Virus record (IMG/VR): IMGVR_UViG_3300045988_119718
Coordinates: 1-64,000 of that record
Source of the DNA: a virus
Reading direction: 5' to 3' (one strand)
Length of the DNA stretch: 64,000 nucleotides
Shown: positions 30,903 through 61,732 of the stretch, one piece after another
How the letters are laid out: each line of letters starts with the position of its first letter
How positions within the stretch are numbered: position 1 is the first letter of the stretch
Position numbers and translations under genes: made by a program
The notes under the pieces: model-generated
What the model was told of the DNA's origin: nothing
The model's database searches: none
The model's input: the letters and a program-made list of their open reading frames with translations, nothing else

Positions 30903-32954
30903 TTAAGGATTGGTAGTAGTTACAGGCGGGAGTTTCATATGACCATCTTCCGGATCAATAACTCCATTTACTTCAGATGCATACTGTTCAGTATTAGCAG
31001 TATCATCATTCATAGCACCCTTAATGAGATAGTCTTCTTCGTTCTTCATATAAACATTCTCTCTGAGACCAGAAGCATTGAGGATACGGATACGACCCTG
31101 AACAGGCTGATACTTGAGGAAGTACCAACGTTCAAAGCAGGTCATTGCCGGAACCTGATAATGTGCGGTATCACGAATTTCGTTGGATACGTACATCTGA
31201 TAATCAATTACCTTATAGGTAATACGCATTGAGTTTCTCGGAATGAGTAATACAATAAGGTTGTTGGAGTTTCTCATCTTCTGGGAAGAAATGAAGTTGT
31301 AAACTCTCTTTTCAGAAGTTACAACGGTTCTCTTGAAATCAAGTTCAACCGGTCCGATGTTGGACGGTGACTGATAGGTGTACTGCTGCGGAGCAATACG
31401 ACGAATAATATCTGGATGACCGAATACTGCTATAGTCATGTTTTCATCATTGAGAACCTGGAGCATACGGGTTACGTACTGGTCAAGGTTATCCATGAAC
31501 ATAACTTTACGCCATTCAACTGGGTTGTTGTTATAGTTAAGCGGCGGAGCAAAGTCGAATGCACCAGAAACCTTCTGGTTAGCTGGCATTGAGAGGAAAT
31601 CATCATCGAGATCTTTAAGAATCGAATCATCCTTCCAATGGAGAAGTGCAAGTCTCATCATAGACATGAGCTTGGTAACCTGATTTACATCATAGGTTGC
31701 CTGAAGATCCTTAACTTCTTCTGGAGTGATTTCGGTAGTAAGATGCGGAGCTTCTGGAATTTCATAGAAGTCCGTCTTAGCAGACCATTTGAATTTAACA
31801 GTCGGGAATACTGCGTTAGAAACATCAACTACAGCATGGATAACTGCACCTTGGAGGGAACCAGTTTCGCCATCGGCAATAGCTTTCCAACCACCTGCTG
31901 GCTGGATAGTAGAATCAAAGGATTCCGGCTTGAATGCTCTAAGGCTAATCTTGTTCTTTTCCATAGTACCCATTACATTGAGGCGAACAGTAGTCTTAGT
32001 TACTTTATTGGTAACAGCATTTCTTTCAACCGGAACTTCAAGCATGAAGCGTCTGTTGAAAATACGGTCATTGGAGCCATAGCCAGGGGTGAACTTACCT
32101 TCTACGTCGAAAATAAGGGTAGCATCTTTGACATCCTTGTCAGCTACCTTAATATGACCAGCAAGGTCAGTCTTAGCAGCTTCTACATCATCGATGTATT
32201 TAGAACCAGCAACAGCAAGACCCTTAATGAGAATCTTAGATACGAATGTCTTCATAGAAAGAGCAGTCAGCGGCATGTTCATTGCCGAAACCTGCTGTTC
32301 AGTGAAAGCATCATGAATAAGATCACCAGTAGCAGCACCACGACCACCGATTTCAGTGGTTACATAGTTAGAAGTTCCATCATCAACCCAAACAAAGTCA
32401 GCGGTCGGGATGGATTCATCTACTGCGTCTTTAATCTTATTCTGTTCATAGAACATATCGTATTCATTGCCCTTGGTATCAACAAGAGTACGAGTTTCCA
32501 TGGTAAGGGTGAACTTCGGTGAACGAGCTACATCCTTCGGCATAACCTGATCAAATACAGCATTCATAAGAATGTTTTTGTGCATCGGAAGAGTCATACC
32601 TACAACTGGGTTATATACACCAAGCGGAGAGGATTCGTTCATGATATGGTTGGTATCGTTATCAAAGATAGCGTCCATGTTGCTGAGATGGTTTTCGAGT
32701 ACAGCAGTGTTCTTGTACTGCGGATCAGAAGCATCATAAGATCCTTCTCTAAACGCAGCCTTAAGTTCTTCTCTATACATGCTATCTTTAAGAACAGCAG
32801 AAGGATCTCTTACCATATCGTAAGCACCTTGAGATTCCTGTTTAATAGCATTGATAGTATCAACATAGTCCTGAGCTACACTATGCATTTCATTAGTTGC
32901 ATAGCTGCTAAGATCTACTTTGGTATCTTCATTAATTGGTTTAATTGCAGCCAT
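30903..32954 (-). CDS. GC-rich (~45% GC), highly expressed-type gene (683 aa); candidate major virion protein (major capsid) or nucleus-shell (chimallin-like) protein
   Basis: strong SD AAGGAGGAAAGCTAATA-ATG; GC ~45-48% against ~25% in flanking genes; frequent CCG/GGC/CGT codons. Confidence 0.35.
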   Translation of the reverse strand: MAAIKPINEDTKVDLSSYATNEMHSVAQDYVDTINAIKQESQGAYDMVRDPSAVLKDSMYREELKAAFREGSYDASDPQYKNTAVLENHLSNMDAIFDNDTNHIMNESSPLGVYNPVVGMTLPMHKNILMNAVFDQVMPKDVARSPKFTLTMETRTLVDTKGNEYDMFYEQNKIKDAVDESIPTADFVWVDDGTSNYVTTEIGGRGAATGDLIHDAFTEQQVSAMNMPLTALSMKTFVSKILIKGLAVAGSKYIDDVEAAKTDLAGHIKVADKDVKDATLIFDVEGKFTPGYGSNDRIFNRRFMLEVPVERNAVTNKVTKTTVRLNVMGTMEKNKISLRAFKPESFDSTIQPAGGWKAIADGETGSLQGAVIHAVVDVSNAVFPTVKFKWSAKTDFYEIPEAPHLTTEITPEEVKDLQATYDVNQVTKLMSMMRLALLHWKDDSILKDLDDDFLSMPANQKVSGAFDFAPPLNYNNNPVEWRKVMFMDNLDQYVTRMLQVLNDENMTIAVFGHPDIIRRIAPQQYTYQSPSNIGPVELDFKRTVVTSEKRVYNFISSQKMRNSNNLIVLLIPRNSMRITYKVIDYQMYVSNEIRDTAHYQVPAMTCFERWYFLKYQPVQGRIRILNASGLRENVYMKNEEDYLIKGAMNDDTANTEQYASEVNGVIDPEDGHMKLPPVTTTNP

Positions 32955-36953: not shown

Positions 36954-39221
36954 TTAGAAGTCTTTACCAAAGCATACCTTTTCAAGAGTCTTTACATATA
37001 CCTCAGTAAAAGTGCGTTTCATAACACTTGATGTACCAGTAGGTGCATAATCAGAATAGGGATCACCAAAATTTTCAAGATAATATTTAAGGTTAAGTAC
37101 GTATGGTACAGTATTGCTTGCAATAATGTATTTTGCTAAAAGCTTAGCTGCTTTTCTCTGTCTATTATAGTTGTAGTCATTAAGGGATCTATTAGACCCA
37201 TCTAAAACAAAATAGCAATGCTCGTTATTGGATTCGCTAATATTGCATTTACCAATAAGATTTCCACCCTTAACGATTTCTTTATAAATCTTATAAGAGC
37301 GTCTCTTATGCTGATGAGCAATTAATACATTATTGTATGCATGTTCCATAAACCAAAGGAAAGCAGGGATAAAGTCTCTTTGATAAATAAATTCCGTAAG
37401 AATATAATACATCTTATTGTATTTATTACTATTTGGTCTTTGTTTATTAATAGTTTCCTGTACCTTTTCTTCATTAGTATGTTTATGATCTTCTGCTTTA
37501 GTTTCTTTTGAAACTTCTTCTTCTTTTGGTGAAGATCCTTCAGTATTTTTACCTACAATCTCATCCAGTTTATTAGATAACTCTTTTACAGCTTTGTTGA
37601 AGTCATTCATTGCTTCTTTATTATCTTTTTCTTTTTCTCCATCAAATTCCTGTGTAGCTTTATCATACTTAGGTGCATCATTTTGCATAGATGATGGAAT
37701 ATAATTAATGCTAATTTTCTCCGTAGAAAAACCAGGTGCTCTATAAATATTGATAGGTGCATCAATACCATCAATCGGTTCAATGCCAGTAGTTTTAAAC
37801 ATAATATTTCTCCTTTTCAAAGAATCAGACTCATCATCTACTACGGTATACTGTGAAGAAGATAATCCGACCCAATGCTCATTAAAGCTAGTAGGCGGAT
37901 TTTTAATCTTAACATCCTTAAGTTTAGGACAATTCTTAAACATATCGGTACACCATTTGCAAGATTTCATATCAATGATACCTTTAATAGTAGTAAGATT
38001 GTAGCAGTTTTTAAACATATAAGACATATTTTTTACTTTAGAAGTATCAAAGTTAGATAAATCCAATGTAGTAAGACTAGTACAATCACCGAACATACAC
38101 TCCATATCATCTACATTAGACGTATTAAAACTAGATAAATCTAATGACGTAAGACCATGGCAATTAAAGAACATAAAGCTCATATTGGTTACTTTAGATG
38201 TATTAAAGCCAGATAAATCTAATGTAGTAAGACTACGGCAACTATTAAACATACTACTCATATTAGTTACTTTAGACGTATTAAAGTAAGTAAATAAATC
38301 TAATGAAGTAAGACCACTACAATGATGGAACATATACTCCATATTTGTTATTTTATCATCGATTATAACATTAGCTTGACCTGAAAATTCCAGTATATCA
38401 ATTACATGAGATTCATCAGCCCAAATCTTACTGTACCATGGAGCACTACCTGTAGATAAAAATGCCAATTTGTGATCATACTCATCATCTACTATGGTAT
38501 ACTGAGATTTAGAAAGCCTACTATACTTTTCAAATTTGTCAGGTGGATTCTTAATCTTAACACCTTTAAGCTTAGTACAATTCATAAACATATCACTATA
38601 CCGTTTACATGACTTCATATCGATTACACCTTTAATAGTAGTAAGGTTAGAGCAACCATCAAATATGCTAAGCATATTTTCTACATTAGAAGTATCAAAG
38701 TTAGTTACATCCAATGAAGTAAGACTAGTACACTTACTAAACATAAGACCCATATCTCTTACATTAGAAGTATTGAAGTTGGATAAATCTAATGAAGTAA
38801 GTTTAGAACAGCCACTGAGCATAAAGCTCATATCAGTTACATTAGAAGTATCAAAACTAGATAAATCTAATGAAGTAAGAGAAGAACACTGATGAAACAT
38901 ATTAAACATATCTTTTACTTTAGAAGTATCAAAGTTAGATAAGTCTAATGATGCAAGATTGTAGCAATAGGCAAACATATTCCTCATATTAGTTACTTCG
39001 GATGTATTAAAATTAGACAAATCCAATGAAGTAATACAATGGCATTCATTAAACATACTGCCCATATTAGTTACACCTTTGCATGTAACTGTAGCTTGAC
39101 CAGATATAGATTCATCCATGTTAATAAATTTATCCTCATCAACCCACGGCATCCAATAATAATTACTATCAGTAAACCATGGAGCATTACCTTTGGCTAT
39201 ATATACCTGCTCTTTAGACAT
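36954..39221 (-). CDS. BspA-type LRR protein with two complete family modules (N-module + LRRs + C-module, twice) fused to a ~290-aa non-LRR C-terminal domain
   Basis: MSKEQVYIAKGNAPWF..ESISGQATVT..LRRs..IKGVIDMKSC..VKIKNPP..SQYTIV, then again ..GSAPWY..FSGQANVI..LRRs..IKGIIDMKSC..VKIKNPP..SQYTVV; SD AAAGGAGAAGTATT-ATG. Confidence 0.8.
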   Translation of the reverse strand: MSKEQVYIAKGNAPWFTDSNYYWMPWVDEDKFINMDESISGQATVTCKGVTNMGSMFNECHCITSLDLSNFNTSEVTNMRNMFAYCYNLASLDLSNFDTSKVKDMFNMFHQCSSLTSLDLSSFDTSNVTDMSFMLSGCSKLTSLDLSNFNTSNVRDMGLMFSKCTSLTSLDVTNFDTSNVENMLSIFDGCSNLTTIKGVIDMKSCKRYSDMFMNCTKLKGVKIKNPPDKFEKYSRLSKSQYTIVDDEYDHKLAFLSTGSAPWYSKIWADESHVIDILEFSGQANVIIDDKITNMEYMFHHCSGLTSLDLFTYFNTSKVTNMSSMFNSCRSLTTLDLSGFNTSKVTNMSFMFFNCHGLTSLDLSSFNTSNVDDMECMFGDCTSLTTLDLSNFDTSKVKNMSYMFKNCYNLTTIKGIIDMKSCKWCTDMFKNCPKLKDVKIKNPPTSFNEHWVGLSSSQYTVVDDESDSLKRRNIMFKTTGIEPIDGIDAPINIYRAPGFSTEKISINYIPSSMQNDAPKYDKATQEFDGEKEKDNKEAMNDFNKAVKELSNKLDEIVGKNTEGSSPKEEEVSKETKAEDHKHTNEEKVQETINKQRPNSNKYNKMYYILTEFIYQRDFIPAFLWFMEHAYNNVLIAHQHKRRSYKIYKEIVKGGNLIGKCNISESNNEHCYFVLDGSNRSLNDYNYNRQRKAAKLLAKYIIASNTVPYVLNLKYYLENFGDPYSDYAPTGTSSVMKRTFTEVYVKTLEKVCFGKDF

Positions 39222-39233
39222 AATACTTCTCCT

Positions 39234-39536
39234 TTAGAATTTATCACTAATAGGATTATTTTCATCAGATAACAGTTTAGGCCTATTATCTTCTTCTTCA
39301 TTGAATCCAATAGGTAATAGACCTTTAACCGTAATCTTCATATCTTCTGTGTGACCACAATTCTGGCATACACAAGTGTATTTAGATTGTTTATCCAGTA
39401 CAGCTTGAATCCATCCCCTAGGGGAGATTTTACAAGCTTTGTATTGAGCAATCAATAGAGCCATTGTAGACCCGCATTTAGGACAAATACCAGGTTGAAT
39501 GACTCTAGTAATCACTTTACGAAGTTTCTGTTCCAT
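39234..39536 (-). CDS. zinc-ribbon protein (two CxxC pairs), possibly a transcription-associated Zn-ribbon
   Basis: CPKCGST..(x39)..CVCQNCGH; lies just downstream of the RpoB N-terminal gene; start uncertain (Met at 39536 or 39581). Confidence 0.4.
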   Translation of the reverse strand: MEQKLRKVITRVIQPGICPKCGSTMALLIAQYKACKISPRGWIQAVLDKQSKYTCVCQNCGHTEDMKITVKGLLPIGFNEEEDNRPKLLSDENNPISDKF

Positions 39537-39537: not shown

Positions 39538-39783
39538 TTAAATACCAAGACTTCCTTTAGTAAATTTAATATTACGGACATCCCCTTCTATAAGAACTTT
39601 AGAATCAGGATATCTAATATTATCTCTACTTACTAAAATAGCAGTATATACTTTAGGAGATCCACGTACTATTACAGTACCGAATCTAGGTTCTACGGTT
39701 CCTCTTGATTTCTCAATCTCAATGATTTTATCATGTTGGGTTTGAGAGAAGATGAAAACTCTATAATATATATTATTCGTCAT
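39538..39783 (-). CDS. small hypothetical protein (81 aa) whose reading frame overlaps the 3' end of the RpoB N-terminal gene
   Basis: ORF track; 11-nt overlap with the upstream gene. Confidence 0.35.
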   Translation of the reverse strand: MTNNIYYRVFIFSQTQHDKIIEIEKSRGTVEPRFGTVIVRGSPKVYTAILVSRDNIRYPDSKVLIEGDVRNIKFTKGSLGI

Positions 39784-41563
39784 ATTTCAATATGTCACTT
39801 CCTTTCGCTATTGGTAAACCAGTTAATGAATCCAGATGTTTTTTAATAATCTGATCATTGGTTTCCATAATACCACCGAGTGCTTCTGTAACATGATTTG
39901 CTACCAATTCAGTTTGGTTAGCAATATCTACATCCTCCGTGGTTACATTATTGTCATCTAATACATTATGTTTAAACTCTATTACCTCTCTAAGTCCTTT
40001 GATTTTTTTATATTCATCACACAGTTCTTTTAGTTCTTGCTCATAAGTAATAGGTTCTTTATTATCAGATAAATAACCATTAGTGTTTAACTTAAGAAAT
40101 GGAATAATAGAACCATTTACACCTGGGTCAGATGGTGAAGATGCATCTGGGTCAAGAATACCCATATTGGAAATATCCAACAGTCTAAACTGGTTTGGAA
40201 TAGATCTAGAACCATTAGAACCATTAGTATCACCTACGCCAGAAATACCTTTATATGTAAATTTAGTTGCTAAAAATGCATCCATATCATTTACGATATT
40301 TCTAAATCCTACTAATTGTGATTTAGTAATTTCTACAATTAACCAATCTGGTTTGATATTGATAGTTCTTTCAATTTCTTTCAGATTAATTTTCTTGCCT
40401 TTATTACTAAGTCTATGAATATTAGTAGTAAGTTTCTTTGCATAAATAGCTGCAATATATTCAGCACATCTTACTTTCTTAGTAGTGATATTCATTGTAT
40501 CTTTCATTTTAAGATTATTGAATTCACATAATAACCATTGAAGTAGAACAAACATATCTTTCTTATATTTCCATGGAAGATAAATCTGTTCTTGGATATT
40601 AATATCCAAGGTAGATTCAAAAGATTTAAGAATAGTAAGACCTTTTTGCAGTTTATTTTGAGTTACAAATCCTCCACCTAATCTTTCAATCCAAATATCT
40701 GTATTATACAGATCATTGAAATTCATAGATGAAGTAATCATATTTAATAAAGTAACTACAGCATGCTGCATAATAGGATTATTCATAAAATATCTATCTA
40801 CATTAATAAAGATTTTATCATTCTTGCTACTGCAAAATGAACAAATATCTTCATTAGACTGATTGTCTGGAGATATAAATAGATAATTAGCCAATCCCAA
40901 GTTCTGTAATGCTTTAACTACACCATACTTAGCAAATAGATATACTATAGCTGGTACAGATTTATTAAATGCAAAACAAGAAAAACTAGTGAATGAATAC
41001 TTATTCCCATCAGTATCACCAACAGGAACTTCAAATCTAGTAATTCTAATTGGCTGGAAATTAGTTTTAAGAGTAATAGTAGCTTTCTTACTATTCTTTT
41101 TAGAAGAAGAATTATTATAAGTAGACGCATCCACAATCTGATACATTGGAGAATAATAATTTCCTTTTAAGAAGAAATAGAACTTATTTACTACTCTTGG
41201 TACTTCGATGATTACATCTAAGTTTTCTCTTTCATTCTTATATGAAGTTTCATAATGAACGATTAAAAGTTTAATCTTAGATTCTTGCAGATCAATATAA
41301 TTAAACCTGTTATCATCAGCAGCTTTCTTACTACCTTTAAGTACTCTTTCATAATGCTTTCTTAAGATAATCTGAATATCATCATAATTATCTGCTACAG
41401 TAAACCCTTTAACTCTTATCGTAAATAAACCATGAGTTTGAATAGAAATAATAATTTTTTCTAATTGATCAATAATTGCTTCATCGGATCTTAGAAATAA
41501 TTGGTCATTAAAATCATCTACATGATTTTGTACATAGTCATGTATAAATCTTTTAATACTCAT
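39773..41563 (-). CDS. multisubunit RNA polymerase beta-subunit-like protein, N-terminal and middle portion (highly diverged)
   Basis: ISGVGDTNGSNGSRSIPNQFRLLDISNMGILDPDASSPSDPGVNGSIIPFLKLNTNGYL aligns to E. coli RpoB [76 protein letters not shown]. Confidence 0.5.
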   Translation of the reverse strand: MSIKRFIHDYVQNHVDDFNDQLFLRSDEAIIDQLEKIIISIQTHGLFTIRVKGFTVADNYDDIQIILRKHYERVLKGSKKAADDNRFNYIDLQESKIKLLIVHYETSYKNERENLDVIIEVPRVVNKFYFFLKGNYYSPMYQIVDASTYNNSSSKKNSKKATITLKTNFQPIRITRFEVPVGDTDGNKYSFTSFSCFAFNKSVPAIVYLFAKYGVVKALQNLGLANYLFISPDNQSNEDICSFCSSKNDKIFINVDRYFMNNPIMQHAVVTLLNMITSSMNFNDLYNTDIWIERLGGGFVTQNKLQKGLTILKSFESTLDINIQEQIYLPWKYKKDMFVLLQWLLCEFNNLKMKDTMNITTKKVRCAEYIAAIYAKKLTTNIHRLSNKGKKINLKEIERTINIKPDWLIVEITKSQLVGFRNIVNDMDAFLATKFTYKGISGVGDTNGSNGSRSIPNQFRLLDISNMGILDPDASSPSDPGVNGSIIPFLKLNTNGYLSDNKEPITYEQELKELCDEYKKIKGLREVIEFKHNVLDDNNVTTEDVDIANQTELVANHVTEALGGIMETNDQIIKKHLDSLTGLPIAKGSDILKYDE

Positions 41564-41564
41564 A

Positions 41565-42209
41565 TTATTCCTCCTCAGTGAGTTTAATACTATATTCTTT
41601 ACCTATTGGATTAACTGCATCTTTCTTATCTCTAATAATAAATTCTCCATCAATATCAAAGCTATTAAGAATCCTTTTTGCTTTAAAGAAACTAATGCTA
41701 TGATTACTAGAAGACTTCAATGCTCTCATATCATTATTGAAGTCAGAAAATGATGGGAACTTATTCTTATAAGAATCTGGATCAATATGTTTATCATTAA
41801 TAGCTTGCTTAATAATTCTAAGCTCAGGGGTATCTTCTTCATAGATATCCAGATGAAGGCAATCATTAACGATAGTTAATCCAGCATTCTTCTCTTCTTT
41901 GATCTTATATACATTATTCAAAACATCTTTAAACGAACTAGAAGAACTAAAATTTACAACTCGTTTAGTAGAGTATTTTTCTTTATCTTCTTCTGTAGTT
42001 GGTAGAACTCCTCTAACAAACAAATCCCCAGGTATAGCACATGGGGTTGCTTTAATATGCTTTGAATATGGTAATACATAATCATCATTAAATTCAACTG
42101 CAATATCAGTATCTAAAGATTTGTTCTTATACATTCTATTGAATTCATCCATAGACACTACACTCATATTCTTGCCGTCAATTACAATCTTTTTAAAATC
42201 TAGATTCAT
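41565..42209 (-). CDS. hypothetical protein (214 aa)
   Basis: ORF track; stop overlaps the start of the following gene. Confidence 0.45.
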   Translation of the reverse strand: MNLDFKKIVIDGKNMSVVSMDEFNRMYKNKSLDTDIAVEFNDDYVLPYSKHIKATPCAIPGDLFVRGVLPTTEEDKEKYSTKRVVNFSSSSSFKDVLNNVYKIKEEKNAGLTIVNDCLHLDIYEEDTPELRIIKQAINDKHIDPDSYKNKFPSFSDFNNDMRALKSSSNHSISFFKAKRILNSFDIDGEFIIRDKKDAVNPIGKEYSIKLTEEE

Positions 42210-42294
42210 AATAATACACCCTTTGCATATTTAGATAAAAAATTAAAAGGGATACGATGACGTATCCCTTTTAAAATTTAAATTATTTTAAAAC

Positions 42295-42960
42295 TTATGC
42301 TACAAATGCAACTGGTTTTTCGTCTACTTTTTTATCTTTATCTTCAATTCCAGAGTCTTCTTTGATAATCTGTTTAAGCAGTTCAGATGGAGTAAATTTA
42401 AGAGTTACTTTACCATCATCGGATACTGATGCAGTGAGAATGAAATAATCTTTAAATTCGATATCATGATCATCACTGCTACTTACCAAAGCATCTCTGC
42501 CAAATTCTTTTAGAGTAATTACCATACCTCTAATAACAGAAAACATATTATAAGCTCCGCCAGACTGTACGTTAAAATTATAGGCATGATGCTTATTAGT
42601 ATTCATTGCATTATCAATATATTCAAAAGATTCTTCATCCACAATATCGGTAATTTTAGAATCTTTCGGAATATCATTAGGGTCAAAGCTGAACTGCAAT
42701 GCATATGCATTACCATCTTTACCTTCACTCTTCAACAAAGATGCTGAAAAGATAATAGCAGAATCTTTGTCTTTAAAATCATTTCTAAGTACAAGAGTAT
42801 GATTTTCTTTATCCCCATCCTTAAGGCTCTTAAGGTACTGAGTAATAGATTCAAACAGACTTGTTGTTACAGGGATACTATCAAAAGAATCCCATTCACA
42901 AGCCATATCACGCATTACTTTTACCATACGGGTTTCAAATCCAGAATTTTCAGCGAACAT
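42295..42960 (-). CDS. hypothetical acidic protein (222 aa from the Met with an SD)
   Basis: GGAGGAAGTAATT-ATG at 42960. Confidence 0.45.
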   Translation of the reverse strand: MFAENSGFETRMVKVMRDMACEWDSFDSIPVTTSLFESITQYLKSLKDGDKENHTLVLRNDFKDKDSAIIFSASLLKSEGKDGNAYALQFSFDPNDIPKDSKITDIVDEESFEYIDNAMNTNKHHAYNFNVQSGGAYNMFSVIRGMVITLKEFGRDALVSSSDDHDIEFKDYFILTASVSDDGKVTLKFTPSELLKQIIKEDSGIEDKDKKVDEKPVAFVA

Positions 42961-43079
42961 AATTACTTCCTCCTTAAAATAACTTATAAAAATGATATAA
43001 ATATAACCACGATAATAACCTTTTGTTATCATCATGATTATAATATATCATTATAATAACGTTTAAGATGTTTTAAATT

Positions 43080-45464
43080 TTAATTATTACTTAATAGCAT
43101 TGATTCGGCATCCGATATAGGGATAATACGAATATTATGCTGCATAGCCTTAGTAACTTTAGAAGATGTAAATCCAAGATATGGTACAATCAAAATATTA
43201 GTTTTATTAGTAACACCTTTTTTAGAATCACAATCATAACCTGCATTTTTAAGTTGCTCTTCTAATCTAGCATCTCTAACACCGCTAAATCTAATTTGAA
43301 TACCATTGTCTTGTTTTACTCCATAAGACCTGATTATATTTGGCATTTGCTCAATAGTATTCAAATCTACTAAAAGGTCTTTTCTTTCATCTACTATAGT
43401 ACGTGCAATCACATTACCAATACCTTTGATACATCTAATCATATTATACAGATTGCTATCAGTATCTCCTACAGGTGTTCCATGTACTATAGTTTTTAAA
43501 GGAATTTGAGTTAAAATAAGTTTCCATCTACTAGCACTAATAGAGGTAAATCCAATGGCACCAATAATCTGGTAATCATACCAATTCTTAGTTTTAATCT
43601 CATTCATTCTTTCTAATAATTTATCTGTCATTACATCACTACCAATTCTATCTAAAATATCTTTTCTAGATAAATTTAGCAGTTCAGTAAGATTGGTAAC
43701 ACCTAATTTCCTAATATAAGATTCACCAAAGTCTTTAATATTCAATTTCTTAAGCATATTAACAACTTTGTTTAAAACCCTTTCACTACAATTAGGATTA
43801 GAACACCATGCAGTATCTCCTGTATTAGAAAATACTACTGGACTTCCACAATATGGACAATATGAAGGGAATTCGATAGAAGGAACAGTTCGCTCTCTAA
43901 TTGCATTATAAGAATTCTCTGGCTTAGTTAGATAGCAAATTACATCATTCATATATGTGATATTTACAATATCACCTTTTCTTAGATCTAACTGATTAAA
44001 TCTTTTGAAACTATGAATAGTGGTTTTATCATGAATAGTACCAAAGAACTCTACTGGTGTGAAATGAGCCATAGGAGTAATTCTTCCATCTTGCCCTACC
44101 GTATAAGTATATCCTAAGAAATATGCATTTTTAGAACTAGCATTAAACTTAATAGCCATAGACCATAAGTCAATACTATTCTTTCTACCAAATATAGTCT
44201 TAAGAGCAGGATGCGTATAAGAGATTACTACACCATCATATGCAAAATTCATATAAGGTCTAGCATATTCTGCTTCATTAGTAAATCTTTGTACTTGTGA
44301 TAATATTTGATAGAAGTCACCATGCAGCATTGCATATCTCATAGTAACACCCGAAGAATAATAAGCATTCATAAAGTTAATTTCATCTGATACTTTATTG
44401 AATCGCAGACCACTGGTTTTAATAGGAACTAAAGTGATAAAATCTCTAAACATCTTAGCATTCTTAGAAGAGATAATACCAGATACTGCTACTCTAGGAT
44501 TCTTATAAGTAATCCCATATTTATCAGCTAAAATAGCTAAATCAGAATATGTAATAATAGCTTCAAATTTCATCCCAAATCTAGTGGTTTCTCTACCACC
44601 AAAGAATTTTTTATAATCTTTAGCTCTATAGAATTTCTTACCACCAAAGATTTCTGTTAAATCTGTTGCAATATTATTAGCAGTATCTCCTCTACTATTA
44701 GCAGAAATAATAGTATCATTCTCAATCTCTGCTTCTACCGACATACCATCATATTTTAATTCTGCAATCATTTCTACAGGGATATGGTCGTTAAAAGCAC
44801 ATTGCTCAGCAGTTTTAAATGTAGGTGCTAAAAAGTCTCTATCAAATACCATAACAGAGAAATCATCATCTTGTACTCCTACTGCCATAGCGTCTCTAAG
44901 AGAAACAAATTTACACTTATGAAGAGTGCCTACTAATTCTGGAAATTTAGCAGGGATATTTCTAGTAATCTTAGATACTTCAGTTGTATCAGAAGTATCT
45001 CTGTAATAATCCATTCTACTAAATGGAAGGTTATTATTCATGATATTACTAATATACTGCTTATTAGTTTTATCAATTTTAGCAATAACCACTCTATTGT
45101 TCCCAGTTACACTAACTGGATTAAAACTATTGCCACTAGCAATAGTAATCGGTTTAGTAGGAGGAGCACCTACTGGTGCTTCTCCATTAAACAAATTATT
45201 GTACTTAGCTACTACCAAATCATATACACCATCTTCTAATGGAAGTATTTCTTTAGCAGTATTATTATATAAAATATTTGAAATTACTAATGTAGTATAG
45301 ATATCTTGCTTTAATGTACCCGATACTTCATTAGCATTGATGAACTCTATAGCAAGATTATTCATATCTACTATATCATTACCATTGATAATATTACTAC
45401 CTTCAATAAGACTATCTTTGATAAGATACAATCTTTTAGATAAATCATTGTTTATAGTTTTCAT
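43080..45464 (-). CDS. ligA: NAD+-dependent DNA ligase (LigA family)
   Basis: KxDG adenylation motif ELKYDGMSV; Zn-finger CPYCGSPVVFSNTGDTAWCSNPNCSERV; HhH region and a C-terminal BRCT-like segment; 794 aa. Confidence 0.8.
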   Translation of the reverse strand: MKTINNDLSKRLYLIKDSLIEGSNIINGNDIVDMNNLAIEFINANEVSGTLKQDIYTTLVISNILYNNTAKEILPLEDGVYDLVVAKYNNLFNGEAPVGAPPTKPITIASGNSFNPVSVTGNNRVVIAKIDKTNKQYISNIMNNNLPFSRMDYYRDTSDTTEVSKITRNIPAKFPELVGTLHKCKFVSLRDAMAVGVQDDDFSVMVFDRDFLAPTFKTAEQCAFNDHIPVEMIAELKYDGMSVEAEIENDTIISANSRGDTANNIATDLTEIFGGKKFYRAKDYKKFFGGRETTRFGMKFEAIITYSDLAILADKYGITYKNPRVAVSGIISSKNAKMFRDFITLVPIKTSGLRFNKVSDEINFMNAYYSSGVTMRYAMLHGDFYQILSQVQRFTNEAEYARPYMNFAYDGVVISYTHPALKTIFGRKNSIDLWSMAIKFNASSKNAYFLGYTYTVGQDGRITPMAHFTPVEFFGTIHDKTTIHSFKRFNQLDLRKGDIVNITYMNDVICYLTKPENSYNAIRERTVPSIEFPSYCPYCGSPVVFSNTGDTAWCSNPNCSERVLNKVVNMLKKLNIKDFGESYIRKLGVTNLTELLNLSRKDILDRIGSDVMTDKLLERMNEIKTKNWYDYQIIGAIGFTSISASRWKLILTQIPLKTIVHGTPVGDTDSNLYNMIRCIKGIGNVIARTIVDERKDLLVDLNTIEQMPNIIRSYGVKQDNGIQIRFSGVRDARLEEQLKNAGYDCDSKKGVTNKTNILIVPYLGFTSSKVTKAMQHNIRIIPISDAESMLLSNN

Positions 45465-47870
45465 TTACTTTTTCTCCGTTACACTTTTAATTACTTTTCT
45501 AAGTATTGGAATACGTCTCTTTTCAAACGTCTTTACTAACTTTACGTTTTCAATGAGTTGTTCATCTGTATTTGAAATCTTAAGAAGAGAATTAATAGCA
45601 TTATTAATTTTTTCTTCTTTGGATACTTCAGAATTTCCTAATACTTTAATATCAGTACTATTATCATACATATCCACCAGCATAGCTCTAGCTTTATTAT
45701 AGCCTTCACCAGTAACTTTAACAGGTAATTTAGTAATGACCTGTCTGTATGAATCTGGTTTAACTCTAGAGATAGCTCTTCTTAAAATTGGGACTCTAAG
45801 TTTCTTAGGAACTTTCTTGAATTCCAATTTAAGACCTAAGCACTTTAAATATGCATTAGCTATTTCTACATTTCTAGATTTAGCATTTTCATCCAATACA
45901 ATATTTCTATCGAATGGATCACCAATCAATAACTGCTTCATCATTCGTCTAGCTGTTGGAGCAGTAGACAACATCATGAGAGCTTCTACAGTGAACTGGC
46001 ATTCTGGTAACTGCATTAACTCAGATGCTTCCATACCACCAATTCTAACTGGAGTTTTAGCTATTGGAGAAATATGCATTTTATTAGCTTTAGTCTTAGT
46101 ATTCTCACCTCTAATATTGGTAGATGCCAATGATACAGCAGAGAACTTTTCTTCAGCTAATTGTTTTAGACGGTAGATATATTTCTTACCAACTACTAAT
46201 GGTCTATTAGTTCTAATCTTTCTAATATTACCGTTAGAATCTTTCTGATTGACGTACAGATACTCTTCTTTAATCCATGGGAATGTATTATAGATATTCT
46301 TAAGAATCTCTAATGTCATCTCATTTTTCATTGGAGTAATTACTACAGGAATATTTCCACTTTCTATGAGATAATCCATATCTTCAACTCTTACTTCAAT
46401 AGGAGTAGACATAATGATTCTATGAAAATCTGTAGCATAATCCATATTAATCAAAGAGAGATATTTAAGTACAGTTTGCTCAGCGACATCGACAACAGTC
46501 GATCTATTAAGATAAGACATGCCCTCCATCAAATCATCATGCTTAGCAGGATACCAATACGTACCAATAGCTTCAAGAAGTTTAGAGCCAATCCAAGTCA
46601 GTTCAGTTTCAAATGACTGACCTGGATTAAGTCTGTTGATAATGGTAGAAGAGTTATAAATTGCATCTACTGGATACCAATTACCATTTCTATAAAATAA
46701 TGGCATTTGATCATCTGGTAAGATAGCGGAAATAACACCTTTACCACCATATCTATCTGTAATCTTATCACCTTTACGCAGTACTTTATTCTCTCTAGTG
46801 ATAATTCTCAGAATGATATTATTGAATACTTTGTCTTTGATATATGGAATACCATTAGCTGTATCTCTGCACTTACGATATACAGATTGCATATCATAAG
46901 TCATTTTAACCCCAGGATGACTATCTAAGAATTTATCAACTGCTTTATAGAGCTTAATACAGAAATCAATATTCTTATCATAATACTCTTTAAGCTGCTG
47001 ATAATACATATCTTCTAGTTTATCTGGGTTATTGCAATATACATCAATATCAACAATTTCCCCATCGGAAATATATGTAGTATCAGAAATCATTAGCTGT
47101 TTAAGTCTTTCTTTAGACTGACTATAAAGAGCTTCATCATCTTTTCTTTCTCTTCTAATAGCACATACAATAGAATCTTTAATCTTCTCTCCGATATTTG
47201 GGAAAGCTTTGTAATAGGTATCATCTCCATACATATTCAATGGGATATCGTTTTCATTAATTACGATTTCAATCTCGTTAAACAATGGGGATTTAAACCT
47301 ATTAGCTGCACTCTGACTAATTACAATAGGGTCTTCTGTAGTCAACCCTAATGCCATATAAACAGTAGTAAGATTAATACCATCAGTCTTATTATCTTCT
47401 TCATCAAATGAATCAGATTTAACCAATGTAGTTCCTTTAGGAATTGTATCTCCTTTATTGAAACTATCTAATCCATCATTGTTTATATTAATACCATAAA
47501 TCTCTGTACGATATTCATAAGTAACTCTTTCTACACAATGAAGCATCTTATGTTCAATATCGTACAATAATGCATAATACTTATTCGCATACTTATAAAT
47601 CTTATCAATCAGTTTATACTGAGCATCTGTTTTAACGTAGTTAGAAGACAAATATGCAAATTTATTTTCATAACCAGTCATAATAATCGGTGTTTCAGCT
47701 TTACATAATTGAATGGATTGTTCTTTCTGAATTCCTTGCATAATCTTTCTGGAACCAGAATTAGTATCATTAAACGGTTGTAATAAGCCTTTACCTAGCG
47801 TATACTCACGCGATGGTAAATTCTTTTCAATTTCATTAGCAGTACTATTTAAATCCAAATTATTTGCCAT
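45465..47870 (-). CDS. multisubunit RNA polymerase beta-subunit-like protein, C-terminal catalytic portion
   Basis: GDKITDRYGGKGVISAILPDDQMPLFYRNGNWYPVDAIYNSSTIINRLNPGQSFETEL matches RpoB [55 protein letters not shown]; downstream GGMEASELMQL resembles FGEMEVWAL. Confidence 0.8.
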   Translation of the reverse strand: MANNLDLNSTANEIEKNLPSREYTLGKGLLQPFNDTNSGSRKIMQGIQKEQSIQLCKAETPIIMTGYENKFAYLSSNYVKTDAQYKLIDKIYKYANKYYALLYDIEHKMLHCVERVTYEYRTEIYGININNDGLDSFNKGDTIPKGTTLVKSDSFDEEDNKTDGINLTTVYMALGLTTEDPIVISQSAANRFKSPLFNEIEIVINENDIPLNMYGDDTYYKAFPNIGEKIKDSIVCAIRRERKDDEALYSQSKERLKQLMISDTTYISDGEIVDIDVYCNNPDKLEDMYYQQLKEYYDKNIDFCIKLYKAVDKFLDSHPGVKMTYDMQSVYRKCRDTANGIPYIKDKVFNNIILRIITRENKVLRKGDKITDRYGGKGVISAILPDDQMPLFYRNGNWYPVDAIYNSSTIINRLNPGQSFETELTWIGSKLLEAIGTYWYPAKHDDLMEGMSYLNRSTVVDVAEQTVLKYLSLINMDYATDFHRIIMSTPIEVRVEDMDYLIESGNIPVVITPMKNEMTLEILKNIYNTFPWIKEEYLYVNQKDSNGNIRKIRTNRPLVVGKKYIYRLKQLAEEKFSAVSLASTNIRGENTKTKANKMHISPIAKTPVRIGGMEASELMQLPECQFTVEALMMLSTAPTARRMMKQLLIGDPFDRNIVLDENAKSRNVEIANAYLKCLGLKLEFKKVPKKLRVPILRRAISRVKPDSYRQVITKLPVKVTGEGYNKARAMLVDMYDNSTDIKVLGNSEVSKEEKINNAINSLLKISNTDEQLIENVKLVKTFEKRRIPILRKVIKSVTEKK

Positions 47871-47934
47871 GTTTCTTCTCCTTTTCTAATAATAAAATCT
47901 ATTAAAGTAACTTCAATACTATAATATATATTTA

Positions 47935-49167
47935 TTATACGTTTAAGAGATTCATTACTTTTTCATTGATTTTATTATTAGCGATTGTAGTTGGATTTAC
48001 ATTTGCTTCTGGAATCTTTTTAAGCTCTTCAATATATGCTGCGGTAAAAGTATTAAAGAACTCTTCATTATTCTGCATTTTTTCTTTAAAGTTACCCATA
48101 GAGAATTTCATATCTTTATGGTCATCTAAGTACAAACCAATACCTGCACCATGGATTCTATCAGTATTCTGCATAAAGATAAGAGATGACAGGATAGGGT
48201 CAAACCCAGTATCATGGTTGAAAAGTAATGTAGTTTTCTGATTGGATCTAGCAGATCTACTCTTTACCAAAGTAGCTTCTACTAATGAACCCCATACCTT
48301 ATACTTCTCATCACCTTTAAGTTTAGTTACATCATCAAGTCTAATAATAGTATTAGCAAGATAGATAATAGTTTTACCCTTAGGTAAAGTTTCACCTACT
48401 TTAAGATATGCAAGAGATGGTTTCTTTGGTCTGCCAGTAATAGATACATCATCCAAAATATGATTAACTGCAATAAGAATAATATTAGCAGCTTTAAGCA
48501 TCTGGATAATACCTCTAAATACCTGAGTGACTACTTTAGCTCCTGCTGTAGTAGACATTGTACCACCAAGTTCATCCTGCTCTAATACATTCTTAGGCAT
48601 AAGAAGTGCAACGGAGTCAAGAATATATACGGTAGGTTCAAACATCATAATCGGATTGCCAAAGCTATCCAGCTTTCCAGTATCATAGATAAAATCATCT
48701 CTATTAGCAAGCTTCATATCATGAATCATTTTAATACGTTCATAGAAGTTTTCAGCTGTAATGCCTTTATCTCTAATGATGTATCTCTGCTTAAGTTCAT
48801 CACCATAATAGCCAGTAAGCATTTCTCTTCTTTGCCATGTAGCAGATAATGATTCGGTAGAATCTTCAAAGATACAAGATGATTTAAATGGTCTAATAAT
48901 ATTAGCAGCAATCTGTTCACAGAAAGTAGATTTACCACAACCAGATCTACCAATCACCATTACAAATGAACCGTTAGCAATACCAAGAGAATAGTATTCT
49001 TCATGAAGATTTTTAGCTTCATTATTGACAGTTTGAATATATCCATTCATAAAGTCAAAATTAGCAAACCCTGTAGGATAACCTACATCGGTAGTAGCTT
49101 CTACACTCATAGACATATCTTTACTTTTGGATACTTCCTGTCTAAACATATCGGACAATAAAGTCAT
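47935..49167 (-). CDS. RecA/UvsX/RadA-family recombinase
   Basis: Walker A GRSGCGKST; Walker B VYILDSVALLMPK (compare RecA VIVVDSVAALTPK); ..TQVFRGIIQMLKAANIILIAVNHI.. resembles RecA ..LIFINQIR. Confidence 0.75.
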   Translation of the reverse strand: MTLLSDMFRQEVSKSKDMSMSVEATTDVGYPTGFANFDFMNGYIQTVNNEAKNLHEEYYSLGIANGSFVMVIGRSGCGKSTFCEQIAANIIRPFKSSCIFEDSTESLSATWQRREMLTGYYGDELKQRYIIRDKGITAENFYERIKMIHDMKLANRDDFIYDTGKLDSFGNPIMMFEPTVYILDSVALLMPKNVLEQDELGGTMSTTAGAKVVTQVFRGIIQMLKAANIILIAVNHILDDVSITGRPKKPSLAYLKVGETLPKGKTIIYLANTIIRLDDVTKLKGDEKYKVWGSLVEATLVKSRSARSNQKTTLLFNHDTGFDPILSSLIFMQNTDRIHGAGIGLYLDDHKDMKFSMGNFKEKMQNNEEFFNTFTAAYIEELKKIPEANVNPTTIANNKINEKVMNLLNV

Positions 49168-50123: not shown

Positions 50124-51305
50124 TTAAAACTCTGAGCTAGGAACTACAATCTTTTTTACTTTCTTAAATGTACCATTTTCAGATTCTACTACAGTAGGAT
50201 TAGCACCAAGAGAATTAAAGAAATCTTCTTTAGCAGAATTAATATTCTTTTCTTTTTCTGATTTAGTAAGAGTATCAAATTCATTAGCTTCAGTAGAGAA
50301 GTTCTTACTAAAGAATTCATCCTTAGATACATCTACAGATGCTCTAGTATTAATGAAATCATTATAAACTTCTTCAATATCTTCTACCGGCATCTTAAGC
50401 CCAGAGATAATAAACTGAATGGTATTATCTTCATGAACATTCTGGATGTGAGAGAAGCTTTCATACGGCACACCATATCTATCTTTCAGTACTTTATTAG
50501 AATAATCTACAAAGTAGGATTCTTTATCACTGATATCCAAGATAGTACCAAAGCGTTTGCATGTAGGTTCGGTGGTAAGAGACTTAGAATCATCTGTAGC
50601 AGAAATAAGTCTCTTATTATAGTCATCTACATTTTTAATCTTATTCAGATTAGCAGATTCAATGACCATAAACCCTGGGGTATTAACAAGTTTAAGCAAG
50701 TCAGATTCATCAATATTCTGCTTAGACTCAGTAATAGTACCGCCTAAAAGAATTTTAATATTTTCACAGAATTTCTTATTTGCTAATTCTTCTGCTTTAA
50801 GTCTATTACCATAAGCTTCATCCAAGAATTTCTTATTAGAAATAGCTTCTACAGTATAAGACGGATCAAGTTCTTTAAACAGGTCTACTGTATTCTTCAA
50901 TCCTCTTACATCATCTTCAAATCCTGTAAAGATACAGAAATGAATATGAGTTTTATACACAGAAGAAATATATTTAGCAAGCATAATGCATGCACCAGAG
51001 CCAGTACCGCCTTCAGCACTGGTAACAATAATAGTCATAGCATCTTTATCATCGTATGGATAATCAAATTTATTTGTTTTAAGATTTTCCATCATGATAT
51101 TATTAGCTACAGAACGTTCTTTGGCACAGCCTTTATAAAGACCTTCCAGTTCTACTGCATGTTCACGATATTCCATAGGGATATCTTTCAATGTAGTATT
51201 TACAAGCATAATACTATTCTGCAATTCAGGGATTTCGTTCATAAGTTCAATAGCTGCCTTGTTACCAGCAGCACCAATTCCGATAATTTTTGCATTGAGC
51301 ATCAT
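50124..51305 (-). CDS. tubulin/FtsZ-family GTPase (PhuZ/TubZ-like phage tubulin)
   Basis: T1 loop KIIGIGAAGNKAA; tubulin signature SAEGGTGSGA (GGGTGSG-like); 393 aa; SD AAAGGAGAAAATTATT-ATG. Confidence 0.7.
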   Translation of the reverse strand: MMLNAKIIGIGAAGNKAAIELMNEIPELQNSIMLVNTTLKDIPMEYREHAVELEGLYKGCAKERSVANNIMMENLKTNKFDYPYDDKDAMTIIVTSAEGGTGSGACIMLAKYISSVYKTHIHFCIFTGFEDDVRGLKNTVDLFKELDPSYTVEAISNKKFLDEAYGNRLKAEELANKKFCENIKILLGGTITESKQNIDESDLLKLVNTPGFMVIESANLNKIKNVDDYNKRLISATDDSKSLTTEPTCKRFGTILDISDKESYFVDYSNKVLKDRYGVPYESFSHIQNVHEDNTIQFIISGLKMPVEDIEEVYNDFINTRASVDVSKDEFFSKNFSTEANEFDTLTKSEKEKNINSAKEDFFNSLGANPTVVESENGTFKKVKKIVVPSSEF

Positions 51306-52919: not shown

Positions 52920-53065
52920 TACCTAAATCACCAACTTCAGTGATTACGGAAATCTTTTCATCATTTTCATTCATGATATTTCACTTCCTTTCTAAAATTA
53001 ATAACTTGTTAAACTAAATTTCTAATTTAAAACTTCATAATTATAATATATAACTTAAGCTAGTA

Positions 53066-53833
53066 TTAACTTTCTCTTCTAACTTTATTATTATTTCTAA
53101 TATCAGAAGTATAAGGTAGCATATAACTATCCTTAATAGTAATAAGATTGCTCATAACACCTGCACCTAACAGATATACATTCAATGTATTTCTAGCAGT
53201 AGAGTCTGTTTTAGAAACTTCTACATCATTTAACGAAACCATATTCTTTTCAGCAATCGTAGAATAGAACTCATCCTTAGCTTTTACTGTATCTGCTCTA
53301 TAAGTAGCTAATTCTCTCATGGTATTAGATAAACCCATTACAGCAAGACATTCCATTTCTCTATCAGATGTATTACCATTCTTATCTTTATTGATTAATC
53401 TACCACTCTTCATATTTCTTTCATCAGTATTAATAGACATAGAGTTCTTTTTAGCTAAGAACTGCTTCATCTTCTTCAATGGAGCATAGACAACTAATGC
53501 TTCATAATTAGTCTTTACTGGCTTACCATCATTACTGGTATATATAAATGGTAAATATACTTTTTCCATCAAAGGTACATTTAAAGTTTTAGCCGCTTTT
53601 TCTATTTGATACATCTTTGGTTCAATATCAAACAATTTCATTTGAAACTTCAGTGGAAATTCTTGTTTAAAATATTCATAGAACTGTTTATCAGACATAG
53701 AAGCAAACTTCTTTTTATACCAAGAACTATTTGCATTGGATGGGTCTAATATATCCATAATCTTATAAATAAGATTCTCTACTTCTTTTCTAGCTTTTTT
53801 TATATTCTGTTGTGATTCTAATACAGCTTCCAT
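53066..53833 (-). CDS. hypothetical protein (255 aa)
   Basis: ORF track. Confidence 0.45.
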   Translation of the reverse strand: MEAVLESQQNIKKARKEVENLIYKIMDILDPSNANSSWYKKKFASMSDKQFYEYFKQEFPLKFQMKLFDIEPKMYQIEKAAKTLNVPLMEKVYLPFIYTSNDGKPVKTNYEALVVYAPLKKMKQFLAKKNSMSINTDERNMKSGRLINKDKNGNTSDREMECLAVMGLSNTMRELATYRADTVKAKDEFYSTIAEKNMVSLNDVEVSKTDSTARNTLNVYLLGAGVMSNLITIKDSYMLPYTSDIRNNNKVRRES

Positions 53834-55665: not shown

Positions 55666-56844
55666 TTATTTATTAGCCTGATAGATTGACATTGCTAAGT
55701 ACATTAATAATGCTTTATTATAATTATTTCTAGTTGCTAATCTGTGTTTTCTCTTTCTGTATAATACAGAACCAGTATTAAGCCAATTATCTATGATACT
55801 CTTTAATTCTAACACATGCTCATCTTTAGTATTAGGTTTAGGTGTAATACTATAGGTAATAAAATTCATAGTAAGTATATTTTTATCTTTAGACTGTTCA
55901 AAGTATGTATATACTAAAATACTTATAGCTTTACGAACTAATATCATATTATTCTTATCATTCAGTATAGATTCTATAATAGACTTTAGTTCCTCAGTCT
56001 TTACTGTAGTATTAGATGATAATTTACATAGCTTATAATCAGCACCACTAGCTACTATGAAAGACATAGTTCTTTGTATTACTTTCTCTGCTTTAAATGA
56101 ATCTGAAGATGCTAAATGATAATCGCCACCATTATTCTTAGGATCTTCATTATCAGAGTTATAGACAATGTAGTCTTTATTCTCATATGCTTTATAATAT
56201 GCTTTAGCTATATTAATCATAAAGCTTCTAATTCTAGAGTGTAATTGCCCTATAAGATATACTACATCTTCATCTGAATAACTAATAAATCTTTTCTCAT
56301 AAGTTTTAACCCAAGTTTGGCAAATACTCATTATAGCTGCAAATAGATTACCTTTAGATTTTAATACGAATTTATTATTCAGCATATTATTGATTACATA
56401 TTCCATTACGAAGTCTTGTGGTACTACTTTAGGGAAAGACATATAATGGATACTAGGATAGAATTTACCTGAGAATGCTAAATAGATCATAGATATATCT
56501 AATGATTTATTATCTTTCTTTAATAAGAAATATCTAATTATAGTCAGCATTAATACAGTTAATTCATCTTTAGCTGCTCTAGGGTTAAAGTTAGCTTGAG
56601 GCCCATAATAGGTATTAGATATAGCATCTTTAACTACTTTCTTTTCTATATTCACAGCTTCAAACATTTTAGTTATATCTGATTCTCTATAATATAATCT
56701 GTCTAATGGAGCAGTTTTAAATAATTCTTCATGCCTATCTGTAATAAAAGTTGATAAACAGGTTTTATATTGTGATAATCGTTTAGGCAATATGCTCTCT
56801 ATTTTAGTATAAACATTATCTTTTATAGATGATTTGTTAGCCAT
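55666..56844 (-). CDS. hypothetical protein (392 aa)
   Basis: ORF track. Confidence 0.45.
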   Translation of the reverse strand: MANKSSIKDNVYTKIESILPKRLSQYKTCLSTFITDRHEELFKTAPLDRLYYRESDITKMFEAVNIEKKVVKDAISNTYYGPQANFNPRAAKDELTVLMLTIIRYFLLKKDNKSLDISMIYLAFSGKFYPSIHYMSFPKVVPQDFVMEYVINNMLNNKFVLKSKGNLFAAIMSICQTWVKTYEKRFISYSDEDVVYLIGQLHSRIRSFMINIAKAYYKAYENKDYIVYNSDNEDPKNNGGDYHLASSDSFKAEKVIQRTMSFIVASGADYKLCKLSSNTTVKTEELKSIIESILNDKNNMILVRKAISILVYTYFEQSKDKNILTMNFITYSITPKPNTKDEHVLELKSIIDNWLNTGSVLYRKRKHRLATRNNYNKALLMYLAMSIYQANK

Positions 56845-58251: not shown

Positions 58252-58447
58252 AATAAAACTTCCTTTCTGCTCTATTATAAGAGCAACTCATAATATATTA
58301 ATAAGACTAATGCCTTATCATAGATATAATATATATATGATTTTTATATTACTTTTTATCAATCTCTGGTCAATAAAAAGTAACATTAAAGTAAGCAATG
58401 TATATTTATATAACGGTGGTGGATATATATTGCTTCATAGATAACGA

Positions 58448-60985: not shown

Positions 60986-61132
60986 TTTATAACCTCCCTT
61001 AATAATTAATGAGATGTCGTCATATATATAATATCTAACTTATTTAATATTTATTGAAGAACTATATAGTATGGAGGTAAAAAAGAAAAGTGGTAGTTCA
61101 CCTTTCTTTATAATATAATTTATGAAATAAAC

Positions 61133-61699: not shown

Positions 61700-61732
61700 T
61701 AAATAATATATAATTATTAATTTTATTATCCA

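Follow-up and report, generated by a model that had tools for sequence, protein, structure and literature searches.

Does a stretch of viral DNA 64,000 nucleotides (nt) long (positions 1 to 64,000 of the IMG/VR virus record IMGVR_UViG_3300045988_119718, referred to below as the window) encode one subunit of a multisubunit RNA polymerase (RNAP) in two separate pieces, and if so, to which polymerase do these pieces belong? A first-pass annotation, made from the sequence alone, had read the open reading frames (ORFs) 45465-47870 and 39773-41563 as the halves of a split, highly diverged beta subunit, with a DNA ligase and two genes of no recognised function lying between them. We followed up this reading with profile searches, searches of the Protein Data Bank (PDB), tblastn comparisons with sequenced phages and an analysis of gene order in related contigs. 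The two genes, which we designate betaC (C-terminal half) and betaN (N-terminal half), very probably make up together the split beta subunit of the non-virion RNAP (nvRNAP) of a jumbo phage of the AR9 type.

Orthology to the non-virion beta subunit of AR9

The betaC gene (45465-47870, minus strand, 801 amino acids (aa)) contains the RpoB catalytic block that the first-pass annotation had assigned to it, with the motifs TTEDPIVIS (aa 177-185), GDKITDRYGGKGVIS (aa 367-381), NRLNPGQSFETEL (aa 412-424) and TPVRIGGMEASEL (aa 606-618) as well as DDQMP and PVD, although the motif quoted earlier as GRYGGKGVIS reads DRYGGKGVIS. The protein matches Pfam family PF00562 (RNA_pol_Rpb2_6) at 1.2e-11, which is over the gathering score, and PHROG 3295, 'RNA polymerase beta subunit', at 1.2e-98. 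In the PDB it aligns over residues 25-683 with residues 19-647 of 7s00_C, the AR9 nvRNAP subunit gp089 (7.3e-89). The phiKZ subunit 7ogp_C is matched as well (5e-16). The likeness to phiKZ and AR9 proposed earlier stands, with AR9 much the closer of the two. Among GenBank phages, the best tblastn matches of betaC are AR9, PBS1 and vB_BsuM-Goe21, with 34% identity over residues 25-683; each AR9-like genome contains a single match site, which in AR9 bears the annotation 'non-virion RNAP subunit, beta C-terminus'. The family profile of betaC is colinear with residues 666-839, 1049-1138 and 1220-1256 of the E. coli beta subunit, a region that includes the ED pair and the lysine motif GDK...GNKGV, and by this alignment betaC is the equivalent of about the second half of the bacterial subunit.

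The betaN gene (39773-41563, minus strand, 596 aa) is, like betaC, a very long ORF for DNA of 29% GC. It has no match in Pfam or NCBIfam. It is recognised by PHROG 2943 (3.6e-21), and residues 90-504 align with residues 70-479 of PDB entry 7s00_c, the N-terminal beta subunit gp105 of AR9 (1.5e-45). A family profile into which the AR9 sequence was included matches the same entry at 2.7e-168, over residues 3-502 against 2-480; AR9 is the sole PDB match of this profile, and the phiKZ subunit is not detected by it. By tblastn, betaN is 29% identical to AR9 g105 (7.6e-49). Alignment of betaN with E. coli beta by hhalign is colinear and pairs the F-x-I-N-G and R-R-I-R blocks, but with E = 0.1 it is not significant. 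As the direct match to cellular beta falls short of significance, the identity of betaN rests on AR9 gp105, for which the structure has been solved. The weaker RpoB similarity that had been claimed for 39773-41563 thus holds in the sense of a beta N-terminal half recognised by way of gp105, and not as a direct similarity to RpoB.

The missing Pfam and NCBIfam matches of betaN and the lack of a significant direct match to E. coli beta would also fit a different history, which the first-pass annotation had itself set out as the opposing case, namely that 45465-47870 is a captured or decaying fragment of a host rpoB gene without partner subunits and 39773-41563 an unrelated gene. Yet the similarity of betaC to cellular beta is limited to short motif blocks: the best cellular match in the PDB reaches about 6e-15 across about 90 residues, the others are worse and span about 70-120 residues, and the NCBIfam rpoB models score 68-77 bits against cut-offs of 800-900, whereas the similarity to AR9 gp089 extends over about 660 residues and betaN matches gp105 in turn. 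Neither gene is disrupted, and both are kept under selection and in fixed synteny in relatives down to 44-48% identity; the relatives compared here and below are 10 contigs, metagenomic or from IMG/VR, that share 48-95% identity with the window in betaC. A third polymerase gene (53066-53833) moreover lies in the same window. Countered by the AR9 matches, the synteny and this third gene, the captured-fragment history is hardly credible.

Split site and gene order

The alignments with the two AR9 halves end at betaN residue 504 (AR9 479) and start at betaC residue 25 (AR9 19). Because these limits fall at the termini of the AR9 proteins, the split site is that of the AR9 non-virion subunit; it lies near residue 650-665 of E. 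coli beta, the betaC alignment beginning at 666. At their C-termini both proteins carry tails that are absent from AR9 and present but variable in the clade. The tail of betaC is about 115 aa long and basic (28 K/R vs 13 D/E; 45465-45818), and that of betaN is about 90 aa long and acidic (20 D/E vs 10 K/R; 39773-40051); given their opposite charges, the tails might bind one another, or else nucleic acid. A pair of similar peptides, RVPILRRAISRV and RRIPILRKVIKSV, flanks the basic tail of betaC.

In AR9, the genes g086 (UvsX-like recombinase), g089 (betaC), g095 (NAD-dependent ligase) and g105 (betaN) follow one another in this order on one strand. The order in the window, UvsX-betaC-ligase-p221-p214-betaN-p81-zn100, is the same but more compact, and tblastn identifies its UvsX, betaC, ligase and betaN as the AR9 counterparts. 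The UvsX/RecA-like recombinase (47935-49167, minus strand, 410 aa in metagenome annotations; PHROG 97, 1.2e-36) is 33% identical to g086 (4e-59) and serves as the upstream anchor of the synteny, while the NAD-dependent DNA ligase (43080-45464, minus strand, 794 aa) features Pfam adenylation, OB and zinc-binding domains, matches PHROG 3869 (2.9e-79) and is the syntenic counterpart of g095 (1e-52). Its start abuts the stop of betaC in the junction GTAAATG.

The eight-gene module is kept in all 10 related contigs, with p221 undetected in one of them, and betaN is 44-97% identical across this set. Since AR9 and the 10 contigs share the order, the arrangement with the C-terminal half first and the ligase between the halves is ancestral synteny, an ancient and conserved order and not a recent disruption. 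The earlier reading had correctly placed the ligase and two genes without database match between the halves, with the C-terminal half first; the halves had also been described as interrupted, and genes do intervene, but this is nothing peculiar to the locus, as AR9 has the same order. The ligase is not part of the polymerase. It stands side by side with the four small genes in a block for replication and transcription that has been conserved, and this set is no insertion into a formerly continuous gene.

A fragment of the virion polymerase in the same window

Jumbo phages of the AR9/phiKZ-type group encode two sets of beta genes, of which one belongs to the polymerase packaged in the virion (PMC7598289). 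The pair betaC and betaN could in principle be the beta subunit of this virion enzyme, which transcribes the early genes, and the PDB search has little to say on the matter, as the solved structures are those of non-virion enzymes only and the search can return nothing else. The tblastn comparison, on the other hand, matches only AR9 g089 and g105, both annotated as non-virion, and not the virion beta gene g189. Virion beta is, in addition, split at another site than non-virion beta, leaving a small C-terminal piece (PMC7598289), and precisely such a piece is present separately in the window. The gene at 53066-53833 (minus strand) encodes a protein of 255 aa that matches PHROG 3233 (6.9e-39) and is 38.5% identical by tblastn to the polymerase domain of AR9 g078 (1.5e-23), which the AR9 annotation lists as a virion RNAP subunit. 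In the virion enzyme, the g078-type subunit makes up the short C-terminal piece of beta, to which an HD domain is fused in Bacillus phages (PMC7598289); this domain is N-terminal in AR9 g078 and absent from the protein encoded in the window. A g078-like C-terminal fragment of about 250 aa is thus found at 53066-53833, and neither the betaC nor the betaN ORF has this form. That betaC and betaN belong to the virion enzyme is highly improbable.

From the presence of the 53066-53833 gene it follows that the phage has a second, virion polymerase set, which rules out an isolated captured rpoB fragment. The first-pass annotation had overlooked this gene; its statement that no beta-prime piece is seen in the window holds as far as tested.

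Early-type promoter motifs upstream of the beta genes

The early promoters annotated in AR9 have the common core AAATATATATTAT and are located upstream of g087-g089 and of g104-g105. In the window, the motif ATATATTAT-N4-ATG occurs 19 times against 6.9 expected, a number reached in 0 of 100 shuffles; the bare 9-mer ATATATTAT is not enriched (16 vs about 14 expected). The sites of the longer motif are almost all on the minus strand, and the seven exact matches are all intergenic and upstream of minus-strand genes. The copy ATATATTATAGTATTG (47914-47929, minus strand), which resembles the AR9 core, stands 44 nt upstream of the betaC ATG, and a second early-type motif, ATATATTATAATCATG (43033-43048, minus strand), stands between the ligase and p221. 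Among relatives with a betaC of 48-78% identity, the motif upstream of betaC recurs in the corresponding intergenic gap, in degenerate form in the contigs L006 and L007. Because both motifs are kept in relatives with proteins diverged to about 50% identity, while the surrounding spacer sequence differs, a functional element is indicated at both positions.

In the AR9/phiKZ-type group, AT-rich motifs of about 10 nt are early promoters read by the virion polymerase (PMC7598289). By this analogy the non-virion beta genes of the window phage would be early genes, and the motifs upstream of them fit early-expressed non-virion genes, a point against a virion beta subunit. Promoters of the sigma-70 type are not enriched in the window (87 vs 110 expected), and the consensus of AR9 late promoters, AACA-N6-TA, is so degenerate that 64 kb do not allow a test.

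Two hairpins accompany the genes between the ligase and betaN. An imperfect one (43002-43042, minus strand) follows the second promoter motif upstream of p221; in L006, L007, L008, L010, L013 and L014, a hairpin of other sequence and similar shape stands directly after the p221-upstream motif, so that the transcript would have a conserved stem-loop at its 5' end. The other (42243-42274, minus strand), a GC-containing hairpin followed by a T-run, is terminator-like and is located between p221 and p214, a gap that contains hairpins of other sequence in L006, L008, L010, L013 and L015.

Further copies of ATATATTAT-N4-ATG are found at 58319-58334, 53036-53051, 25080-25095, 17668-17683, 9378-9393 and 9655-9670, and the motif is densely clustered at 61021-62543, a stretch without any ORF of at least 110 aa that looks like an early-gene region. 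Many gene starts in the window have a layout of their own, in which a strong hairpin is followed by a T-rich run (e.g. TTTTTATTTTTATAAGGAGG) ending in a ribosome-binding site. This layout occurs upstream of 1178-1654, 1756-2298, 17673-18317, 22319-23374, 25103-25909, 29659-30816 and 55666-56844, and may represent terminators or combined terminator and late-promoter elements.

The source phage and its relatives

A stretch identical to the window is contained in the European Nucleotide Archive (ENA) contig ERZ27229725 k119_143398 (252,690 bp), at positions 86,728-150,727. The GC content is 28-31% across nearly the whole window (extremes 25-36%), and the minus strand holds every sizeable ORF from about 34.5 kb to 53.8 kb. 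Near-identical proteins occur on many further contigs of 230-265 kb in public metagenome assemblies, one IMG/VR genome contains a betaC 95% identical to that of the window, and the protein of one relative bears a Bacilli metagenome-assembled genome as its source label. No GenBank phage is similar to the window at the DNA level, and among these phages there is no near-identical isolate. The phage is an uncultivated jumbo phage of 29% GC from a clade without a cultivated member. It adds to the AR9-type two-polymerase jumbo phages a distant lineage (about 30-34% identity) with genomes of about 250 kb that recurs in metagenome assemblies.

Partner subunits and the weight of the assignment

In AR9 and phiKZ, transcription follows a two-polymerase strategy (PMC7598289, PMC9209446), and five subunits suffice for the AR9 holoenzyme (PMC9209446). 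Transferred to the window phage, a polymerase packaged in the virion would be injected together with the DNA and would use AT-rich promoters to transcribe the early genes, among them betaC and the ligase as well as the group p221-p214-betaN-p81-zn100. The two beta halves would then join a pair of beta-prime halves and a fifth, sigma-like subunit, the genes of which would lie in other parts of the 252-kb genome, and the resulting polymerase, independent of the host and lacking alpha and omega, would transcribe the late genes.

Several observations weigh against assigning betaC and betaN to such an enzyme. PHROG scans of the large ORFs of the window returned no beta-prime, and neither did tblastn against the AR9 region with the beta-prime genes g145 and g154. 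The sequence available for reading comprises about 84 kb of the 252-kb contig, that is, the window and about 10 kb beyond each of its ends, and within it neither a fifth subunit of the gp226/gp68 type nor the beta-prime halves were located. The betaN family profile, furthermore, does not match E. coli beta in hmmsearch. Finally, since the terminator-like hairpin separates p221 from p214 and betaN, betaN could be transcribed either by read-through or from an unrecognised promoter.

The search for beta-prime was also extended beyond the phage itself. The roughly 10 kb beyond either window end contain no polymerase genes, and a query of AR9 g154 for related loci returned AR9 itself as the sole match. 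An alignment-based scan for beta-prime gave 80 contigs, all of them outside the set known to carry the window-type betaC, and among the matches listed in a DNA-pattern scan for NADFDGD, giant viruses dominate. The protein P0225, a homologue of AR9 g154, was considered as the beta-prime of the window phage and rejected: its contigs are arranged differently and carry a virion beta fragment 7 kb away, so that P0225 belongs to another phage.

The loci L020 and L021 (NODE_50, 173 kb, and WUHA17-1 scaffold_41, 257 kb, both in ENA) represent a different lineage of about 257 kb, also with 29% GC. They encode a 704-aa homologue of the C-terminal half of beta-prime that shares 29% identity with AR9 g154, and a gene for a virion beta fragment lies at a distance of 7 kb. 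AR9-like two-polymerase phages thus appear to be diverse in public metagenomes.

Small genes next to betaN

The gene p221 (42295-42960, minus strand) encodes a clade-specific conserved protein of 221 aa, its start being supported by a ribosome-binding site before 42960 and by metagenome gene calls. A longer reading of 246 aa from a start at 43035 is probably too long, because its ATG sits inside the promoter-like motif. Homologues occupy the same position in nine of the 10 related contigs (23-93% identity). The neighbouring p214 (41565-42209, minus strand), which ends 1 nt before betaN, is likewise a clade-specific conserved protein, found in all 10 contigs with 29-94% identity and featuring the conserved C-terminal motif A-x-N-P-[IM]-G. 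By profile, neither p221 nor p214 has a match in Pfam, PHROG, NCBIfam or the PDB; p214 shows a weak match to AR9 g162 (E 1.8e-4 in a tiny database).

Downstream of betaN, the gene of the small protein p81 (39538-39783, minus strand) starts within the last 11 nt of the betaN ORF and is followed after 1 nt by zn100 (39234-39536, minus strand), a 100-aa protein with a four-cysteine zinc ribbon (CPxC ... CxxC). The first-pass annotation had listed both as a zinc-ribbon gene and an overlapping ORF of 81 aa, and both prove to be real genes, kept in the 10 related contigs. Across these contigs p81 is 51-99% identical, which in distant relatives exceeds the conservation of betaN; a homologue search for p81 found 10 proteins, all of them metagenomic. 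Ribbons of the zn100 type are found only in small metagenomic proteins (72-121 aa), save for two matches inside much larger proteins, and neither p81 nor zn100 has a homologue in the isolated phages of GenBank.

The earlier suggestion that these two proteins are small polymerase-associated subunits gains from their position: both are co-oriented with betaN. Operon neighbourhood is nevertheless weak evidence for a role as subunit, since the DNA ligase sits in the same block. The AR9 five-subunit holoenzyme contains no proteins like p81 or zn100 (PMC9209446), and hmmsearch and hhalign detect no counterpart of p221, p214, p81 or zn100 in the AR9 syntenic block. The AlphaFold model of p81 (pLDDT 45) is unusable, and that of zn100, although confident (pLDDT 80), has fold matches below significance, to generic zinc ribbons. 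It is therefore unlikely that the nvRNAP of this clade has p81 and zn100, perhaps with p214, as additional subunits or factors of its own. The short sequence NP[IM]G near the C-terminus is common to p214 and to the zinc-ribbon family, with the zn100 of the window reading NPIS, and occurs in no other ORF within the three related loci scanned; it may be a short docking motif shared by p214 and the zinc-ribbon protein. Whatever their function, the four uncharacterised proteins next to betaN form part of a compact, conserved operon.

DNA chemistry and other genes of the window

In AR9, R363 is the arginine that stacks on a promoter base, and the gp105 pocket residues for the -10 uracil include R363 and K375 (PMC9209446). 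Residue R384 of betaN corresponds to R363 in the alignment and is invariant across the clade; at the position of K375 the clade has E, S, A or D, so that this residue is not conserved. Near its end the window encodes a Dut-type dUTP diphosphatase (62624-63175, minus strand; NCBIfam 1.5e-30, below the cut-off), adjoined by the anaerobic ribonucleotide reductase activase NrdG (63187-63705, minus strand), with NrdD just past the window end. The NrdD gene is split by an HNH endonuclease gene in L025 and intact in L026. Beside betaN there is no Ugi homologue, unlike in AR9, where g104 occupies this place. As phages with deoxyuridine DNA raise dUTP and block dUTPase (PMC12697855), a phage-encoded dUTPase, which would counteract a build-up of dUTP, together with the lack of Ugi by betaN hints at ordinary thymine DNA, with a quarter of the genome seen.

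The dUTPase, the missing Ugi beside betaN and the loss of the K375 uracil-pocket contact lead to a more far-reaching idea, namely that this gut-associated clade uses a template-strand-reading nvRNAP of the AR9 type on thymine DNA, perhaps with accessory proteins of its own. The accessory set may consist of p81 and the zinc-ribbon protein, perhaps docking through the NP[IM]G peptide held in common with p214, along with the oppositely charged tails of betaC and betaN. We regard this as a long shot. If true, the dependence of promoter recognition on uracil would be a special case among AR9-type polymerases, and the subunit composition of the enzyme would differ as well.

A divergent GTPase of the tubulin/FtsZ family is encoded at 50124-51305 (minus strand; Pfam Tubulin 5.6e-5, below the cut-off; PHROG 'tubulin PhuZ' 7e-6). 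It is kept in several relatives, its sole match among GenBank phages, to Bacillus phage G, is weak, and no tubulin match was found in AR9-like phages. AR9-type phages are described as not forming a phage nucleus, and for this reason a tubulin in the window phage is unexpected. No chimallin, the shell protein of the nucleus-forming, phiKZ-like Chimalliviridae, was recognised among the large ORFs of the window in general scans, none of which was aimed at chimallin.

Three paralogues with leucine-rich repeats of the DUF285/BspA type are located on the minus strand (36954-39221, 7566-8672 and 8682-9257); the largest matches PF03382 at 3.6e-63, and segments are about 77% identical in DNA sequence between copies. 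A role in host adhesion or receptor binding is possible for the three, which may be a clue to the host. Further core genes of jumbo phages in the window encode a GroEL-like chaperonin (26012-27790), one part of a family B DNA polymerase (12839-14836), an SbcC-like ATPase (19123-21819), a primase (22319-23374) and a type II topoisomerase subunit (58586-60985); a capsid protein (30903-32954) and a tail sheath protein (3783-5954) are encoded as well.

Comparison with known polymerases

The AR9-type pair of non-virion beta genes is known already, and the current picture of jumbo-phage transcription is unchanged by the window phage. For polymerase specialists, the clade provides comparative data on the gp105 pocket, in which R363 is conserved and K375 is not, and on the terminal extensions. 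Compared with bacterial RpoB, the blocks of the C-terminal half are colinear, and the N-terminal half is unrecognisable by sequence statistics. The phiKZ nvRNAP (PDB 7OGP/7OGR) is likewise split, alpha-less and multisubunit, but its similarity to the window proteins is far weaker than that of AR9. The Staphylococcus phages S6, PALS_2, vB_SauM-UFV_DC4 and MarsHill, Yersinia phage phiR1-37 and Listeria phage LPJP1 have a homologous betaC, with 28-32% identity across about 83% of the protein; these jumbo phages are more distant than AR9 and have more intervening genes, the order in PALS_2 being a putative recombinase-sized gene, betaC and, downstream, the DNA ligase.

The homology to gp089 and gp105 of AR9/PBS1 (PDB 7S00, 7S01, 7UM0 and 7UM1) is full-length, with 34% and 29% identity. 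Two differences concern the interval between the halves: AR9 has nine genes between the ligase and betaN where the window has two, and the betaC-betaN interval of AR9 holds genes for Ugi, Ku and HU, none of which is present in that of the window. With AR9 the window shares the split site, the catalytic motifs, the one-strand order with the C-terminal half first and a GC content of about 28-29%, and in both phages an AT-rich early-promoter core, ATATATTAT, stands upstream of the two beta genes. A second, virion beta fragment, g078 in AR9 and 53066-53833 in the window, lies nearby upstream in both.

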